DNA of 42,345 nucleotides from a virus (IMGVR_UViG_2609460346_000006:1-42345); one strand, 5' to 3'; shown: positions 30,918 to 37,985, numbered from the stretch's first letter. Numbers and translations are program-made. Notes: generated by a model not told the origin, from the letters alone.

Positions 30918-32267
30918 ATGGCTACGTGGCAACAGGGTATTAATTCTGGTGGTTTTCTGGCTGGAATTGGTGCGCAAAATGAGAATGCGCCAAAGGCAAG
31001 CGACATTAACGCAACGCTTGGTCTGATCCGCGAAAACAATGAACTGGCTCGATCAGGTGCAAATAACGTTGGTCTGACCGCGTTACGTGGTCTGGCTGGA
31101 GTTGCTGATATTTATAAGCAGGAACAGCAACAGAAAGCGATTAATGCGTTCAATAAGGTTCATGCTGATGCATGGGCTTCTGGTGATCCATCGGGACTAT
31201 TTAAGTTTGCCCAGGAAAATCCAGCGTTTGTTGCACAGGCACAACAGGCGTTTTCCGGTCTTAATGAGCAGCAACGCAACGATATGGGCGATTTAGCCAT
31301 GAGGGCTAACGTCGCTCTTTCCCAGGGACCGGAAGCCTACAGTAAATTCATTACTGACAACAAGGACAGGTTAAATCGCGTTGGTGCTAATGCTGACTGG
31401 ATGATTCAGACAGGTATCCAGAATCCAGAGCAGCTATCACACATGCTGACTACTATGTCTCTCGGTGCACTTGGGCCAGAAAAGGCGTTTGCTGTTCAGG
31501 ATAAGATGGTTGGTCGCCAGCAGGAGCAGCAAAGAATTAACGAAACCATTCGCAATAATGACATGACGAATGCGAGGGCTATTAGGGGGCAGGATCTTTC
31601 CTATAAGGCTCAAATGGCAAGACTGAATCACGACAAGTATGTGTTTAAGCAGTCACAGGCGGCCCTTGAAAGAGCAGGACAACTTCAGGATATGGATGTT
31701 TTGTCTCTTAACTCACAGATAGCAGCGACGGGAATTGATCCGCTAACCGGTAAAGCTGCAACGTCAGCCAGAATGTCTCAGGCTAAGAGATGGCTTGATG
31801 GCAACAATAATTACAACAATGCGTTGATTACTGGTGAGCGAGGGATAGAGAAAATAGATTCTTTGCTTGGTAAGAAGGAGCTTGAAGGTATCGGTCGCTT
31901 CGAAGGAAGAAATATAGATGGCTTCACAAGTGCTGAAGGGCTTGCAAACCGTAATGCGATAGAAGAATTAAAGTCGGGTGCGTTTGTCCAGAACGTGCAG
32001 ACTATGCGAGGTATGGGTAGCCTCTCCAATGCTGAAGGACAAAAACTGGAAAACCTTATCGCGAAACTCGATATAACACAGCCTGAAGAGGTCGTCAGAA
32101 AACAGTTATCTGAAATCCGATCGCAATATTCTGTATTTCAAAAGGTTGCAGCAAGGGAGGCTGAATCAATGGGATATAGTTCATCAGGTTATGACACATA
32201 TGTTAGTGAGCGAAAATCAGGAAGCGACAGCAATAAGTCCGGTTTCTCGTCTTTATGGGGTGATTAA
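30918..32267 (+). CDS. Ejection protein (P22 gp20-like)
   Basis: 449 aa, synteny and composition consistent with gp20. Confidence 0.7.
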
Positions 32268-34435
32268 TGGCTAAAGCATGGAAAGATGTTATCGCTTCTC
32301 CACAGTATCAGGCGTTAACTGAAGAACAGAAAGCACAGGCTCAAGCGCAATATTTTGATGAGGTTGTTGCCCCTAAGGCTGGTGACAAATGGGCTGAAGC
32401 AAGAGATCAGTTTTATGCAGCATACCCTCCACCTCAGCAGCAGAAAGAAGAACCATCATTGATGCAACAAGCTGGTGATTGGCTCACAGGTGGTCAAAGT
32501 GCAGGGCAAATTGCAGAACAGGCTGGTCGTGGTCTGGTAAACATACCATTTGACGTATTGCAGGGTGGCGCAAGTCTGATTAATGCAATCAGCCAGGGGC
32601 TTGGTGGCCCAAAGGTTTTGGATGATGTCTATCGTCCAGTCGATCGACCGACAGACCCTTATGCGCAAGCCGGTGAAACAATTGGTGGGTATCTCCTGCC
32701 AATTGGCACAGCGGCAAAAGCTGCTGGAGCGCCAGCAAAGCTCGCTGGAGATATCGGTTCCGCAGGAAACATGATTGCAGGTTCTCTTGCTGATGCTGCA
32801 AATCAGGAGGGCGACTTTGCACAAAATGCTGCCATTAACGGTGGTATCAATATTGGTGCTCAGGGGATACTTTCTGGGGCTGGAAGGATCTTAACCTCTA
32901 AATCACCTCAAGTTCTTGGTGGCGGGGCAATAAATTCCGCTGCTGATGTTTCGAAAATGGCAAAGTCTGGTACAGGAAGAGAGATTATTGCCAGACAGTC
33001 AGCTAATGTGTCAGACGAAATAGCAAAAGCAGCAGATACTGCTGGAATAGATATCAACGCATTAACTCCTGGCATGAGATCAGGTAGTCGTGGTCTTGCT
33101 CAGGCGGAGGGGATTCTGGCGTCAAAGCCCGGAATTACACAGGATGCACACACCAAAGCATTCAGTGAAATAGAGTCGAAATTTAACTCAGCATTGGATG
33201 AGTTTGGGGCTGAAGCAGGAACTGCATCAGAAAAAAGTGCAGCCATAAAACAAAGGGTTTTGGCAAGTATTGATAAAATGAAAAATTCAGAAAAGGCTGC
33301 ATGGGATAGCGTCCGCTCCACGATGCCTGACGCAAAGGCCAGAATGTCAAACCTGAATGCTACAATTCAGGGTGATATTTTGGCTGGCATGCCGCTAACT
33401 CCTGAGATGAAACAATTCGCATCTGCTTATGCTAAAACTGGTAAAAAAGGAATCACGTTTGATGCCATGAAGGCATGGCGAAGTAAACTTGCTGACGCAG
33501 AGCAGAAGTATATAAGGTCTGGTGAGGCAAATACGGCAAGGCGCATGGCGGAGCTTCGTGATGCAGCAACGGAAGATATGCGCATAATGGCTCAAAATGG
33601 CGGTTTTCTTGATGACTGGCAAAAAGCTAATGATCTGTCAAAGGCAAGATTTACAGCACAAGAACAGGCTGAAGCAGCGTTTGGTAGAGACCTTGCAACT
33701 GATCAGTTGGTAACTAATGGATCTAAGGCGTTACAGGGTTCAGCAAAAAGTGGAACAGGTCAGTTCCATAAAATAATAAGCGCCCTACCTGAGTCGGAAC
33801 GCGCGCCAGCAATTGCATCAATATTACAAGATGCAATGTCGCAAGGGGTACGCGGAGGTAAGTCTGAAGAGGCTGGAATTAAGCATATCGCGACTATTCT
33901 TACCCCACAAAACGTGAAGGCAATTAGTCGATATTCTCCAGAACTTGGCAGGATTACAAGTTCATACGGAGAACTTGCACGAGCAGCAACAAAGCCACTT
34001 CGATATATTGAACAGACAGGGCGATCTATGCCAGCCATTAGCACTCTTGAGAATGGCCTTCATCCAGTTTTAGAGAGCGCATTGTCTGGCGCTTTTAGAA
34101 CTACTGGCACTATCGCAGGGTTCTCTGGAGGAGGCGTTATTGGAGCAATAGCGGGTGGCGCTGCAGGTGGGGCAATTGATGCAATGGCAAAAGGAGCGAT
34201 AGCGAAATTATCCGCAACTAGAAGCGGTCGTTACGCTATTGAAAAGGCTGTTCAAGAGGCAACAAAGGCAGTTAAGGTTGGGGCAAGTGATGGTGCATTA
34301 GCGGCGGCGGAACGCAGATTTATGGCAAATAAGGCCGCCGTAAAAGCAATACGCGAGGCACTAGGAAACGAAGAGTTCCAGCGTTTAGCAAGAGCTGGAA
34401 TTGTGGCATCGCTAAGCGGAATGGCACAGGAGTAA
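32267..34435 (+). CDS. Ejection protein (P22 gp16-like), extended
   Basis: 722 aa, last gene of the ejection cassette, Ala/Gly-rich; assignment by synteny. Confidence 0.65.
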
Positions 34436-34765
34436 TTAGTCATCCATGGATGGATTGAGCTTATCTCGTGTTGATGTGGCAATTTTCCCAACATTTTTCA
34501 ACCAAGATTTTAAGAAGGATATGTCGTCCTTAATATCATGAATATCCTCATTCTTTATACGATCAACCTTATCCTCTAAGCTCTCTATAGAACGCTCAAT
34601 GCTAGACAGAGAGATTTTTAAGTCCCCTTGCTCACGTTCCAGTGAGGATTTGAGAGCACAATATTCGTTTTCTAGAATTCCTATTTTTTTTGTTAGAGAG
34701 TGCATTCGATACTCATACACCAAACCAGAAACGACTAATGCAGCCAACAGAAACCATTCAAGCAC
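34436..34765 (-). CDS. Small membrane-anchored coiled-coil protein, unknown function
   Basis: 109 aa, GTG start preceded by AGGAGG (5-nt spacer); N-terminal TM (LEWFLLAALVVSGLVY) then coiled coil; opposite strand to the virion genes, AT-rich. Confidence 0.6.
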   Translation of the reverse strand: MLEWFLLAALVVSGLVYEYRMHSLTKKIGILENEYCALKSSLEREQGDLKISLSSIERSIESLEDKVDRIKNEDIHDIKDDISFLKSWLKNVGKIATSTRDKLNPSMDD

Positions 34766-35133
34766 ACCAACCTCCTTAGTTTTGCTCAGGATACCAGATG
34801 ATACTTTATTGGTGGAGTGGTGTGTGAAAACGTGTCAACGACAAACCATCCACAACTTGGACGAATGATTTAGCAAAAAGTGCTATTTTTGGTGTTTGGT
34901 GTCATAGAAAAGTGAATAGCTCACTTTTCAACATTGCATGAAACTTGCAGGAAATGTGACATTACCTTATAGGTAACTTCGGCGAAAATGCAGTAAATGT
35001 GAAACGTAATGGTTTAAACATGTCGCTAAAGTGGTTGTAAGTTAGCCTCCGAAGGATTGCTGATAGCTTTGTTATAGTATTAAATGACATTTGACATAGT
35101 TGGATACTTAGCTGTGGCTATCAAGATGGAGGT

Positions 35134-35583
35134 GTGTTCATGCTTACTTGTTTTGATGTCGCCGACTACTTCCTGTCGCGGTGTGACGAGGATAGCGGTG
35201 ACGCAATCTCTAATTTAAAATTACAAAAGCTTGTTTACTATGCTCAGGGTTTTTCATTGGCGTTGCTTGGCGAGCCTCTTTTTCAGAATAAGATGGAAGC
35301 TTGGATGCATGGCCCTGTTGTCCCTGAGCTTTATCACCGTTATAAACAATATGGTAATGGTGCTATCCCTTCTCCAGAGTCTTTTGATGCTGAAAAATTC
35401 AGCGAAGAACAGTTAGAGCTATTAGAAGAAGTCTGGGATGTTTTTGGGCAATTTTCTGCCTGGAAACTGAGGAACATGACACACGAAGAGTCACCATGGA
35501 GATCAAACTATATTGAGGGTGTTGGTGGTTCTGAAATTAGTTCTAAGGAGATGGCAGAGTACTTTGCAACTCGGATTAACTAA
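35134..35583 (+). CDS. Panacea-domain (DUF4065) protein, GepA/SocA-like; candidate antitoxin
   Basis: 149 aa; motif …LKLQKLVYYAQGFSLALLGEPLF…AWMHGPVVPELY… matches the DUF4065 core as recalled; GGAGG RBS. Confidence 0.75.
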   Translation: MFMLTCFDVADYFLSRCDEDSGDAISNLKLQKLVYYAQGFSLALLGEPLFQNKMEAWMHGPVVPELYHRYKQYGNGAIPSPESFDAEKFSEEQLELLEEVWDVFGQFSAWKLRNMTHEESPWRSNYIEGVGGSEISSKEMAEYFATRIN

Positions 35584-35587
35584 CGAG

Positions 35588-36007
35588 ATGGCAAGAAAAT
35601 CTAAAAGGATTATCCCCCCTGCTGAATCTACAGGTAAGTTAAAGTTAGGGCCGCAGTCAGGGGGGAATTCAGATCAAAAGAAACCGAAATTTTCATTCTG
35701 TTACATCCAAAGCTCTCACTGCATAACGAAATGCCAAAAAGATGAGAAAGCTGGCTTAGCTGATAAATTATACAGATTAAGTCAACTAACATGGGCAGAT
35801 ATTAAGCAGCAAGGTAGGCATAAGCTTGGATTTGAGAAGATTGCAAGGGGTGCAATTAAAGCAGGTATCCCCAGTCATATAACGGAAGACGTAGATCATT
35901 TCTTGGCTTTTAGATTTGATGATTTGAAAGCCATGGTTGGTTATCGTCTTGGATCGACATTTTTTGTTATATGGCTTGATAGAGAGTTCAACCTATACAA
36001 GCACTAA
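35588..36007 (+). CDS. Unknown 139-aa protein immediately downstream of the Panacea gene; candidate toxin/effector partner
   Basis: Internal ATG 35588, 4 nt after the Panacea stop; basic N-terminus, Cys-containing, C-terminal …FFVIWLDREFNLYKH; no family recognised. Confidence 0.5.
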   Translation: MARKSKRIIPPAESTGKLKLGPQSGGNSDQKKPKFSFCYIQSSHCITKCQKDEKAGLADKLYRLSQLTWADIKQQGRHKLGFEKIARGAIKAGIPSHITEDVDHFLAFRFDDLKAMVGYRLGSTFFVIWLDREFNLYKH

Positions 36008-36008
36008 T

Positions 36009-36034
36009 AAAACCCCCCGTCAGGTGGGTTTTTT
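36009..36034. terminator. Bidirectional terminator between the Panacea operon and mnt
   Basis: Hairpin flanked by an A-run upstream and a T-run downstream (AAAACCCCCCGTCAGGTGGGTTTTTTG). Confidence 0.6.
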
Positions 36035-36271
36035 GTACAAATCCTTCAGCGTATCAAACACCATCTTCCTAACAAGTTCGGACTGCTCATCAGCGATGCG
36101 TTCTGCATCGTCTCGATAGCCTGCAATTGGTGATGGTTTTGATAGCGCATCCTGAACGATTTGTAATAACTCTGAGTTCATTGACCTTCCGTTAGCCTCT
36201 GCTCTTAATTTCAATTTTTCTCTTACTTCCAAAGGCATACGGAAGTTAAAGTGCGGATCGTCTCTAGCCAT
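36020..36271 (-). CDS. mnt: Mnt repressor (ribbon-helix-helix)
   Basis: 83 aa, near-identical to P22 Mnt as recalled (MARDDPHFNFRMP…EVREKLK…RAEANGRSMNSELLQIVQDALSKPSP…). Confidence 0.9.
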   Translation of the reverse strand: MARDDPHFNFRMPLEVREKLKLRAEANGRSMNSELLQIVQDALSKPSPIAGYRDDAERIADEQSELVRKMVFDTLKDLYKKPT

Positions 36272-36294
36272 GCCATCACTCCAAGTTAGTATCT

Positions 36295-36552
36295 CTAACT
36301 TTCGTCTTTATTGTTGCTATACATGCATTTCAACTTCTCAACATCATGTTCAAGATCTATCAATCGTGATGCTATAGTTGCAAGGTCTAGTGCTTGAATG
36401 TGTTTATTTTTTTCGGTCCATGCTTCAAGTGCCGCGACCATCTCAGCATTTAATGAACGAGAATTAGCCTCAGCCAGTTCAATAAGACGTTCCTTTATCT
36501 CTACAGGAAGCCTCAGATTCACTTGAGGGTTTTTGTACTTACGATCAGACAT
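36295..36552 (-). CDS. Second Mnt/Arc-like RHH DNA-binding protein
   Basis: 85 aa from ATG 36552 (track ORF begins at GTG 36558); RHH signature …NLRLPVEIKERLIELAEANSRSLNAEMVAAL…. Confidence 0.7.
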   Translation of the reverse strand: MSDRKYKNPQVNLRLPVEIKERLIELAEANSRSLNAEMVAALEAWTEKNKHIQALDLATIASRLIDLEHDVEKLKCMYSNNKDES

Positions 36553-36558
36553 CGGCAC

Positions 36559-36657
36559 ATCCTGAATAATTTTTTACCACAGGATATGTAGGTATCTATT
36601 GACTATCAATGCGTACCTAAATACTATGTATGCGTACCACATACAACGGAGGATGCA
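36559..36657. promoter_or_regulatory. immI control region: divergent promoters with palindromic operator-like sites
   Basis: Inverted repeats AGGTA…TACCT and ATTGA…TCAAT and a duplicated TGCGTACC motif between divergent RHH genes. Confidence 0.45.
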
Positions 36658-36798
36658 ATGAAGGTAAAAACACTGCGTATGCCAGAGAAGTTAGAAAAAA
36701 TCCTTGAAGAGAAAGCAAAGGAAGAGTGTCGCTCATTTAGTGCAGAAGTAATTAAACGGGTGATGGACAGCCTGAAGAGAGAGGGGATAACGGTATGA
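36658..36798 (+). CDS. Arc-like RHH repressor (46 aa)
   Basis: Manual translation MKVKTLRMPEKLEKILEEKAKEECRSFSAEVIKRVMDSLKREGITV; GGAGG RBS; parallels P22 Arc …NGRSVNSEIYQRVMESFKKEG…. Confidence 0.6.
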   Translation: MKVKTLRMPEKLEKILEEKAKEECRSFSAEVIKRVMDSLKREGITV

Positions 36799-36998
36799 GT
36801 AAAGAATGTTGTTTCTGCGGCATTAGCGAATCAGACGCTGATCAAACATACATTTACTCTAAAGAAACAGGTCGGATGCTGTGTAGTGACTGCGTGTTGG
36901 ACATCATAAGATACAAGCATCTTGGATGTTCTGCCAGCATTAGCAATATAGGTGAAGTATATGAAGGGAAAGATATAACTGATAGAGCAGAAAGTTGA
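36795..36998 (+). CDS. Small zinc-ribbon protein between arc-like and ant
   Basis: 67 aa, ATG overlapping the arc-like stop; CxxC…CxxC (…CCFCG…CSDCV…). Confidence 0.5.
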   Translation: MSKECCFCGISESDADQTYIYSKETGRMLCSDCVLDIIRYKHLGCSASISNIGEVYEGKDITDRAES

Positions 36999-37061
36999 AG
37001 CCCCAACTGCGGTAACAGTCAGGGCTTCGGTATCGTAAAACCACGCATAGGAATTAACGAC

Positions 37062-37985
37062 ATGAAAAGTATAGCAACAGCAGTATCTACTATCAATGTA
37101 CCATTCCACGGCGCAGAGCTTTATGTTGTCAATCACAACGGTGAGCCGTACACCCCAATGAAACCTATCGTTGAGGGAATGGGTATGGATTGGGCTTCAC
37201 AGTTTACAAAGTTAAAACAAAGATTTGCTAAAGGTATTGTGGAAATCGCAATACCTTCAGTTGGCGGTGTGCAGAACATGATTTGCCTTGCTTTACGTAA
37301 ACTTAATGGCTGGTTGCAAACCATCAGTCCTAACAAAGTCCGCCCTGAAATCCGCGACAATGTAATCCAGTATCAAGAAGAGTGTGACGATGTGCTATAC
37401 GAGTACTGGACTAAAGGCCATGTAGTTAACCCACGCAAAGCTAAAAAGGCGTTGCCGGGTAAAATCACCACTGAGCAGCAGGAAGCCATTAAACAACTCG
37501 TCATGAGTCGCGGTCAGTCTCTGCCAAAAGAAAAACAGGCTAAGGCGATGATCACCATGTGGTCGTCACTGAAATCCCATTTTGGATGTTCGTACAAAGA
37601 AATCAGTGAGGAGCAGTTTACCGAAGCACTATCGCTTGCAGCTCGAGTTCCACTTGAAGGTGAGTTCATTGGCAAACAAGAGAAGAAAACCAACGAGCTT
37701 TCTGCAAAAGAAGCAAACAGCCTTGTATGGCTATGGGATTATGCCAACCGCTCACAGGCATTATTCCGCGAATTGTATCCGGCGCTAAAACAAATTCAAT
37801 CGAACTATTCAGGCAGATGCTACGACTACGGTCATGAGTTCTCGTATGTTATCGGAATGGCGAGAGATGTTTTAATTAATCACACACGAGATGTTGATAT
37901 CAATGAGCCAGACGGACCAACGAATCTTTCTGCATGGATAAGACTTAAGAACAAAGAATTACCTCCTTCAGTACATAACTACTGA
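37062..37985 (+). CDS. ant: Antirepressor Ant (P22_AR_N-type N-terminal domain)
   Basis: 307 aa downstream of arc-like in an immI arrangement; followed by a strong terminator. Confidence 0.7.
   Translation: MKSIATAVSTINVPFHGAELYVVNHNGEPYTPMKPIVEGMGMDWASQFTKLKQRFAKGIVEIAIPSVGGVQNMICLALRKLNGWLQTISPNKVRPEIRDNVIQYQEECDDVLYEYWTKGHVVNPRKAKKALPGKITTEQQEAIKQLVMSRGQSLPKEKQAKAMITMWSSLKSHFGCSYKEISEEQFTEALSLAARVPLEGEFIGKQEKKTNELSAKEANSLVWLWDYANRSQALFRELYPALKQIQSNYSGRCYDYGHEFSYVIGMARDVLINHTRDVDINEPDGPTNLSAWIRLKNKELPPSVHNY

Follow-up and report, generated by a model that had tools for sequence, protein, structure and literature searches.

The sequence examined, called the window here, is a stretch of viral DNA of 42,345 nucleotides (IMGVR_UViG_2609460346_000006:1-42345), and positions are counted from its first letter. 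The features around the locus of interest are collected in Table 1. A preliminary description had reported a minus-strand ORF of 109 aa with a GTG start and a strong ribosome-binding site, and the ORF list and the sequence agree with it in all these points; AAGGAGG stands 5 nt ahead of the GTG. The ORF is the hkcB gene of coliphage HK620 (HK620p55, NP_112088), the copies being 98-99% identical; in a megablast search against phage genomes HK620 hkcB gave 97.8% at the DNA level, and the closest match was vB_EcoP-611R6. The gene is labelled 'hypothetical' in the HK620 record. It was also said to oppose the late operon directly after the last ejection gene, which proved right: hkcB runs towards gene 16, and their stop codons lie directly against each other (34435/34436). 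The gp16 of the window is 95% identical to that of HK620.

On the other side of hkcB a pair of genes is transcribed divergently. The first encodes an antitoxin of the Panacea/SocA-like type (PF13274, E 8e-25), and the second, placed 4 nt downstream, encodes a partner of 139 aa which matches phrog_8366 (E 1e-65 over residues 26-164) and, weakly, NsnC. They are a candidate toxin-antitoxin or defence pair, and the same pair is found in Salmonella phage Emek as orf149 and orf161. Further on, positions 36020-37985 of the window make up a complete immI-type region.

Table 1. Position of hkcB, its segments and signals, and the neighbouring genes of the window.
Feature	Position	Strand	Basis or remark
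Gene 16, DNA-transfer/ejection protein, HK620/CUS-3 long type	32267..34435	(+)	phrog_770 'DNA transfer protein', E 8e-220
hkcB CDS	34436..34765	(-)	109 aa + stop; GTG start 34765-34763
HkcB codons 66-109, most conserved C-terminal module, DRIKNEDIHDI..W..NVGkIATSTRDKLN	34439..34570	(-)	Alignments
HkcB codons 21-70, heptad-repeat (coiled-coil) segment	34556..34705	(-)	Heptad register count
HkcB codons 2-17, single N-terminal hydrophobic (TM) helix	34715..34762	(-)	Hydropathy
Leader shared by hkcB, P22 sieA and other cassette ORFs, CATCTGGTATCCTGAGCAAAACTAAGGAGGTTGGT-GTG	34763..34800	(-)	Alignment
hkcB Shine-Dalgarno AAGGAGG	34771..34777	(-)	Spacer of 5 nt to GTG
Candidate extended -10 element TGgTATCCT	34788..34796	(-)	Conservation; inferred transcription start near 34781
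Intergenic region, context-specific, of the Panacea module and not of the hkcB cassette	34801..35133	.	Identity with Emek
Divergent Panacea/SocA-like antitoxin (35134-35583) and phrog_8366 partner (probable start 35588)	35134..36007	(+)	
Two mnt/Arc-family repressor genes (36020-36271 and 36295-36558)	36020..36558	(-)	PF03869 + PF11423; hkcB strand
Arc-like gene, 46 aa	36658-36798		immI-type region
Cys-rich ORF, 67 aa	36795-36998		phrog_7150
sar antisense RNA of immI	36993..37060	(-)	Rfam RF00262, 85.7 bits, E 8.5e-18
ant	37062-37985		immI-type region

The ORF is under purifying selection, with pN/pS of 0.34 among 14 alleles of the HK620 type and 0.49 among 14 alleles of the CUS-3 type. The TM helix, the heptads and the C-terminal motif are retained in homologues as low as 26% identity. 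On account of both observations hkcB is taken as a real gene and not a chance ORF. The conserved Shine-Dalgarno and GTG in about 60 loci favour the GTG start over the internal Met21, which is missing from the homologues of the CUS-3 type. Longer versions of the protein in the databases (134-179 aa: P0005, P0027, P0028) were rejected as miscalls of an upstream start. It is hardly credible that hkcB is non-functional filler lying between a recombination 'boundary sequence' and gene 16. The 25 years in which no function has been annotated for it, the very narrow family and the behaviour of the flanking leader as a recombination linker would fit such a view, but the selection just mentioned speaks against it, together with the strong Shine-Dalgarno at optimal spacing and the maintenance of ORF, TM helix, heptads and C-terminal motif to 26-35% identity in Serratia and metagenomic relatives.

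In PHROGs the protein matches phrog_5962 (E 1.9e-61, residues 2-109), a family which carries no functional annotation. Variants of 107 aa with 50% identity to the HkcB of the window are encoded by CUS-3 hkcB, epsilon34 gene 14 (gp14) and SEN22_15. In the epsilon34 genome paper (PMC2629481) gene 14 is placed in the 'ant moron' and given as a homologue of hkcB, its function unknown; this was the sole substantive mention met in our literature search, which returned no functional study of hkcB. Scans with Pfam, NCBIfam and PADLOC yielded sub-threshold coiled-coil noise only. Among the candidates rejected in this way were the XhlA family PF10779 (14.3 bits, E 0.047, against a gathering cut-off of 34.7 bits), the o-spanin model NF038368 for P2 Rz1/LysC (13.7 bits against a cut-off of 27) and the PADLOC DpdH model, whose match (E 0.002) covers the coiled-coil stretch and is noise. 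Mimicry of gp7, gp20, gp16 or other tail proteins was likewise discarded as compositional similarity only, and so was a likeness to YajC.

The members found all come from P22-like prophages of Enterobacterales. When 1.8 billion representative proteins were searched with a profile, about 7 true clusters came out, all of the HkcB family, and the remainder were long coiled-coil proteins. Two scans of species-representative genome contigs found no relative, presumably due to the absence of such prophages from these genomes. Among complete E. coli genomes hkcB is present in 117 of 5,426 (~2%), always on the chromosome.

The protein had been described as having one N-terminal TM helix followed by a coiled coil, and both parts were recovered. 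Residues 2-17 are the sole strongly hydrophobic stretch (Kyte-Doolittle 2.16 for the 15-mer and 1.94 for the 17-mer), and the 3-4 hydrophobic spacing extends over residues 21-70 and again over 75-96. AlphaFold2, run with a 9-sequence alignment, predicts one continuous helix from residue 2 to 103 with a mean pLDDT of 83, rising to ~90 across the heptad segment. A sequence-profile search of the PDB returned generic, designed or GCN4-type coiled coils only and a Foldseek search of the PDB with the model returned no matches; the modelled fold is without functional information.

Conservation is concentrated at the C-terminal end. W88, N91, V92 and G93 are invariant in the alignments of the homologues even at 26% identity, the between-type dN is 0.18 in the C-terminal module and 0.64 in the N-terminal part, and the DNA of the module is 82% conserved with CUS-3 and epsilon34. 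A similar conservation (~82% with CUS-3, epsilon34 and SEN22) runs through positions 34223-34557, that is, the last ~70 codons of gene 16 and the last ~40 codons of hkcB; outside this block hkcB has diverged from these three phages beyond megablast detection. It may mark a joint left by recombination, or the two gene ends may be constrained together. Two sequences from metagenomic contigs of 1.3-1.7 kb, P0022 and P0023, join an unrelated, non-hydrophobic N-terminal part of 60 aa to the last 45 aa of HkcB. They are natural recombinants, which would show the C-terminal module to be separable, or else chimeras from assembly.

Lysine and arginine are absent ahead of the TM helix in 8/8 diverse members of the family, and 2-4 of them occur within the following 15 residues (3 in the window copy, again with none ahead). 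By the positive-inside rule only, the protein is predicted to be N-out/C-in, with the coiled coil and the conserved tail on the cytoplasmic side. On topology, then, the single helix of the preliminary description was upheld, and the coiled coil is predicted to be cytoplasmic rather than periplasmic. The i-spanin Rz and the division proteins FtsB and FtsL share with HkcB the plan of one N-terminal TM helix followed by a coiled coil of ~100 aa. These three proteins are N-in/C-out and have positive charges ahead of the TM helix. HkcB differs from an i-spanin in the missing K/R residues and in having no o-spanin partner, and its gene lies in the immI/ant moron and not in the lysis cassette.

The arrangement of hkcB and gene 16 is constant. 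In 63/63 IMG/VR loci hkcB is convergent with gene 16, with the stops back to back, and that gene 16 is of the long type known from HK620, CUS-3 and epsilon34. Wherever the type of gp16 could be established, it was this one that stood beside HkcB. The copies of HK620 and CUS-3 are of the same family, position and orientation as that of the window; they differ in the upstream neighbour, which is hkcC in HK620 and the YafO operon in CUS-3, as against the Panacea pair in the window. In a prophage of Serratia marcescens a gene for a 104-aa HkcB homologue, convergent with gp16, lies 36 nt behind mnt, the same layout occurs in Klebsiella aerogenes and Salmonella prophages, and the convergent neighbour of a metagenomic 96-aa homologue is 65% identical to the C terminus of CUS-3 gp16. 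Upstream of hkcB, by comparison, ~17 different contexts were counted (62 loci and the window).

In phages Bas106 and Dewey the C terminus of gp16 is related, and the tailspike gene follows directly, without a moron. They are viable without hkcB, which is therefore an accessory gene and not a part of the virion machinery; judged from gene content, it is shown to be dispensable for virion function. As regards the traits expected of a moron, its presence varies among otherwise syntenic phages and a candidate promoter, the extended -10-like motif, is conserved upstream, but no intrinsic terminator was found downstream. It is very improbable that HkcB is a lytic-cycle accessory, whether of ejection and the virion (e.g. 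a gp16 chaperone) or of lysis. The gene does always adjoin gene 16 with the stops abutting, its product is superficially i-spanin-like in TM helix and coiled coil, and weak sub-threshold matches to XhlA and Rz1 exist. Nevertheless its strand is opposite to that of the late operon, at least 12 unrelated ORFs can take its place in phages having the same virion genes, and it is missing from viable phages with related gp16; moreover, the window carries its own lysis genes elsewhere, the N terminus is without the positive charges of N-in spanins, and all family matches are far below the gathering cut-offs. A homologue of HkcB among structural or lysis proteins, which the preliminary description had named as a refuting outcome, was not found.

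A strict covariation between the subtypes of HkcB and of the gp16 C terminus was considered and rejected, as HkcB of the HK620 type pairs with gp16 C-termini of both the HK620 type and the CUS-3 type. The gp16 proteins of HK620 and CUS-3 were found to be 77% identical over the full length (L001:2068-4236 against L004:1551-3710), whereas the text of an earlier study gives 26% identity for the two and uses it to explain their differing SieA sensitivity (PMC10883804). At 77% identity the determinant of SieA sensitivity would lie in a much smaller set of differences.

The leader of hkcB connects it with a characterised gene. The 38 nt upstream of hkcB are identical to the sequence before P22 sieA, through the GTG start (CATcTGGTATCCTGnnCAAAACTAAGGAGGTTGGT-GTG), and the last ~38 nt before the GTG are conserved in nearly all upstream contexts as CAT(C)TGGTATCCTGnnCAAAACTAAGGAGGTTGGT-GTG. 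The leader is present in 48/62 hkcB loci. HK620 hkcB and P22 sieA have at least 100 nt of identical upstream DNA (on the hkcC side), and positions 34763-35200 of the window are 100% identical to Emek, where the ORF behind the leader is orf129 and not hkcB. [quoted passage not shown] No SieA-A or SieA-B homologue was present in the 68 hkcB loci or in the window, and BLASTP of HkcB against P22 and HS1 SieA gave only noise (E 0.38 or worse). From the shared leader and GTG it follows that HkcB is a non-homologous ORF swapped into the sieA expression slot; given the same leader and position, the lack of homology and the lack of co-occurrence, hkcB and sieA are alternative cassettes of one slot.

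The slot is used by many more genes. An exact-pattern scan of IMG/VR for the leader located at least 119 loci, and 116 complete cases were examined; among the matches listed, the slot ORF begins at a GTG 5 nt after the Shine-Dalgarno in 112 of these 116. The leader GGTATCCTGnnCAAAACTAAGGAGG, then 5 nt and GTG, precedes at least 12 unrelated families of small ORFs in P22-like prophages (loci L080-L197). Their products are SieA-A, HkcB and at least 10 further unrelated families of 62-149 aa, among them the orf129/Sf6 gp38-like proteins, a protein called X109 here, and proteins of 62, 75, 116, 99, 140, 149, 106 and 68 aa. In 12 of the 13 slot groups counted the protein has at least one TM helix or an N terminus resembling a signal peptide, and the 140-aa family has no membrane signal at all. 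Pfam assigned none of the slot families except one YobH-like protein, and SieA is the only characterised occupant among the matches listed. As regards gp16, HkcB occurs only with the HK620/CUS-3 type, and the P22 type accompanies SieA-A, X109, orf129 and the proteins of 62 and 116 aa. Such tracking may reflect target specificity or simply physical linkage. In the literature searched, no publication was found on hkcB or other ORFs sharing the sieA leader, or on HkcB as an exclusion protein. While the HkcB family itself was already known, the placement of hkcB in the sieA slot behind the sieA leader, as read from the alignments, is new here.

For expression, the preliminary description had pointed to 34766-35133 as the promoter region. 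A candidate motif does lie there, the extended -10 element TGgTATCCT, and the remainder (34801-35133) belongs to the Panacea module. The motif is kept through ~11 different upstream contexts and is present in 48/62 hkcB loci. In 13 of the 14 loci without it a co-oriented ORF ends 20-67 nt upstream, and hkcB is there the last gene of a leftward operon starting with mnt; such mnt-...-hkcB operons were seen in CUS-3, Klebsiella and IMG/VR loci. The Serratia homologue has a diverged copy of the motif, TGcTATGCT, and the functional sieA of HS1 has a degenerate one, CGGTGTTCT. A generic sigma-70 scan, whose rules exclude the extended -10 type, detected no -35/-10 promoter on the minus strand in 34766-35133, and the P22 record puts PsieA just upstream of the conserved block, in DNA absent from the window. 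After hkcB no intrinsic terminator was found (fold z-score -0.97).

In P22 both Mnt and SieA are expressed by the prophage, and 85 bp upstream of sieA are enough for exclusion (PMC10883804). It is likely that hkcB too is expressed in the lysogen, as the preliminary description had held probable, because of the leader in common with sieA, the mnt operons, the pattern of the motif and this prophage expression in P22. We propose that HkcB would be synthesized at a low level in the lysogen from TGgTATCCT acting as a portable extended -10 promoter and that, where this element is absent, the gene would be served by transcription running on from the mnt operon. On the minus strand at 34846-34864, ~50 nt upstream of the promoter-like motif, lies a weak hairpin resembling a terminator (7 bp and a T-rich tail), which might insulate the slot from leftward read-through. 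In the operonic loci the product of the gene just upstream of hkcB is often a membrane protein which is rich in Gly, has a coiled coil, is anchored by its C-terminal tail and resembles XhlA below the threshold (L043:5329-5664, L061:5308-5661, L064:5478-5924); it is a possible membrane partner of HkcB.

Compared with P22 SieA, HkcB has the same slot, leader, Shine-Dalgarno and GTG, the two are mutually exclusive, and both are small proteins with N-terminal hydrophobic helices. The differences lie in the proteins themselves. SieA has 3-4 TM helices in 164-212 aa, whereas HkcB has one TM helix and a coiled coil in 109 aa; hydrophobic 17-mers counted by the same criterion numbered 1 in HkcB and 3 in P22 SieA. 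The SieA motif FxRYPxEAxxFNK is absent from HkcB, which contains a single Pro and no RYP. SieA travels with gp16 of the P22 type and HkcB with that of the HK620/CUS-3 type. By sequence, motif and number of TM helices HkcB is not a member of the SieA family, and locus and expression signals are what the two have in common; the homology comparison covered SieA types A and B. The function of SieA is demonstrated, whereas we infer the role of HkcB.

Among the other slot-mates X109 (109 aa, MLEIIVFVLGIACC...) is the nearest in appearance, as it has the same slot, leader and length as HkcB, an MLE start, an N-terminal TM helix with no positive charge before it, a KKK flank and a coiled coil. BLASTP between the two is borderline (E 3e-6, 36% over 67 aa, in the half with TM helix and coiled coil), and homology was unsupported by hhalign, where the profile comparison gave 7% probability. 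The C-terminal domain of X109 is unrelated to that of HkcB, and X109 is found with gp16 of the P22 type.

Small, membrane-anchored proteins of prophages or of early infection which block genome entry are well known, such as T4 Imm, HK97 gp15 and lactococcal Sie2009, and they are often encoded by morons within structural operons or next to them. In general the functional domains of these proteins lie in the periplasm or outside the cell. That of HkcB is predicted to be cytoplasmic, and scans with Pfam, PHROGs and PADLOC revealed no homology of HkcB to known small exclusion proteins.

With these comparisons in hand, we tentatively regard HkcB as an analogue of SieA in function, though not its homologue, which would serve in superinfection exclusion of P22-like phages or in defence against them; this assignment by analogy is quite possible, though still short of probable. 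hkcB would be an accessory (moron) gene that has replaced sieA in the slot after, and convergent with, gene 16. The protein would be inserted in the inner membrane by its N-terminal helix with the N terminus out, leaving on the cytoplasmic face an oligomeric coiled coil of ~90 residues and the W..NVG.IATSTRDK tail. From there it may act at the inner membrane on the completion or use of the DNA-delivery channel of gp16 and gp20, or on a host factor which the channel needs.

What is published on SieA and gp16 bears on this proposal in several ways. SieA blocks DNA injection at the inner membrane, and escape mutations map to the C-terminal regions of gp16 and gp20; its conserved motif is likewise predicted to be cytoplasmic (PMC10883804). 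gp16 forms the part of the conduit lying across the cytoplasmic membrane, with a need for host YajC (bioRxiv 10.64898/2026.09.03.749273), and YajC, a single-pass inner-membrane protein of 110 aa, is required for P22 DNA entry (PMC10883804; bioRxiv 10.64898/2026.09.03.749273). CUS-3 carries hkcB, but its ejection proteins are fully SieA-sensitive, and those of HK620 are partly resistant (PMC10883804); exclusion proteins and gp16 types are therefore not simply matched one to one. It also weighs against exclusion as the role of HkcB that the predicted cytoplasmic orientation would be unusual for a blocker of a periplasmic conduit, and that the association of HkcB with a gp16 type can be explained by physical linkage alone.

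The main rival to the reading of HkcB as a SieA analogue is a prophage defence or abortive-infection factor which does not block DNA entry, for example a membrane-tethered cytoplasmic sensor or effector acting after injection, possibly against unrelated phages. We consider this role somewhat unlikely. It would agree with the predicted C-in topology, which puts the conserved domain in the cytoplasm, and with the richness of the moron in cargo of defence type (the Panacea pair in the window, the YafO toxin in CUS-3 and HicA/YcfA-like genes in SEN22); the slot occupant of 140 aa, free of any membrane signal, and the position of hkcB after genes for XhlA-like tail-anchored coiled-coil proteins in some operons, a hint at membrane complexes, point the same way. 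Yet SieA, the only characterised occupant of the slot, is an injection blocker specific for P22-like phages (PMC10883804), no credible match of HkcB to PADLOC models was obtained, and a gene so strictly linked to gene 16 points rather to a target related to ejection.

An effect on the host itself, with HkcB as a lysogenic-conversion factor acting on division, Sec/YajC function or envelope stress, is improbable. The short N-terminal TM helix and coiled coil do resemble small bacterial membrane regulators, the look-alike X109 has weak sub-threshold matches to ZapB-type coiled coils, and P22 DNA entry depends on the single-pass YajC (PMC10883804; bioRxiv 10.64898/2026.09.03.749273). Against these stand the lack of similarity of HkcB to YajC, FtsB, ZapB or other host proteins beyond coiled-coil composition, and the confinement of the family to P22-like prophages, where it occurs only adjoining gene 16.

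Returning to exclusion, a wider form of it can be drawn for the whole slot. The position after gene 16 would be a swappable exclusion-cassette locus in which one fixed leader, with promoter, Shine-Dalgarno and GTG, serves a dozen or more unrelated small envelope proteins. HkcB would be a member with a new mechanism, a coiled coil tethered to the membrane and facing the cytoplasm, whose tail would engage the exit of the gp16 channel or a host cofactor such as YajC, thereby excluding phages with gp16 of the HK620/CUS-3 type, those largely escaping SieA included. In this full form the proposal is unlikely, and we put it forward as speculation.

Of the inhibitors of the P22 ejection-protein conduit only SieA is understood, and its mode of action is still debated. 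If HkcB and its slot-mates are exclusion proteins, they would offer several probes of the gp16/gp20 channel which are natural and not homologous to each other, including one for HK620, a phage that for the most part escapes SieA. Genes 16 and 20 belong to the most variable genes of the virion, and such exclusion would then help to account for this as the outcome of an arms race against the prophages in residence. Since hkcB is present in ~2% of the complete genomes of E. coli, it could also affect the host range of phages of the P22 kind used for therapy or transduction. The shared leader provides one PCR or search pattern by which the whole repertoire of cassettes can be catalogued.
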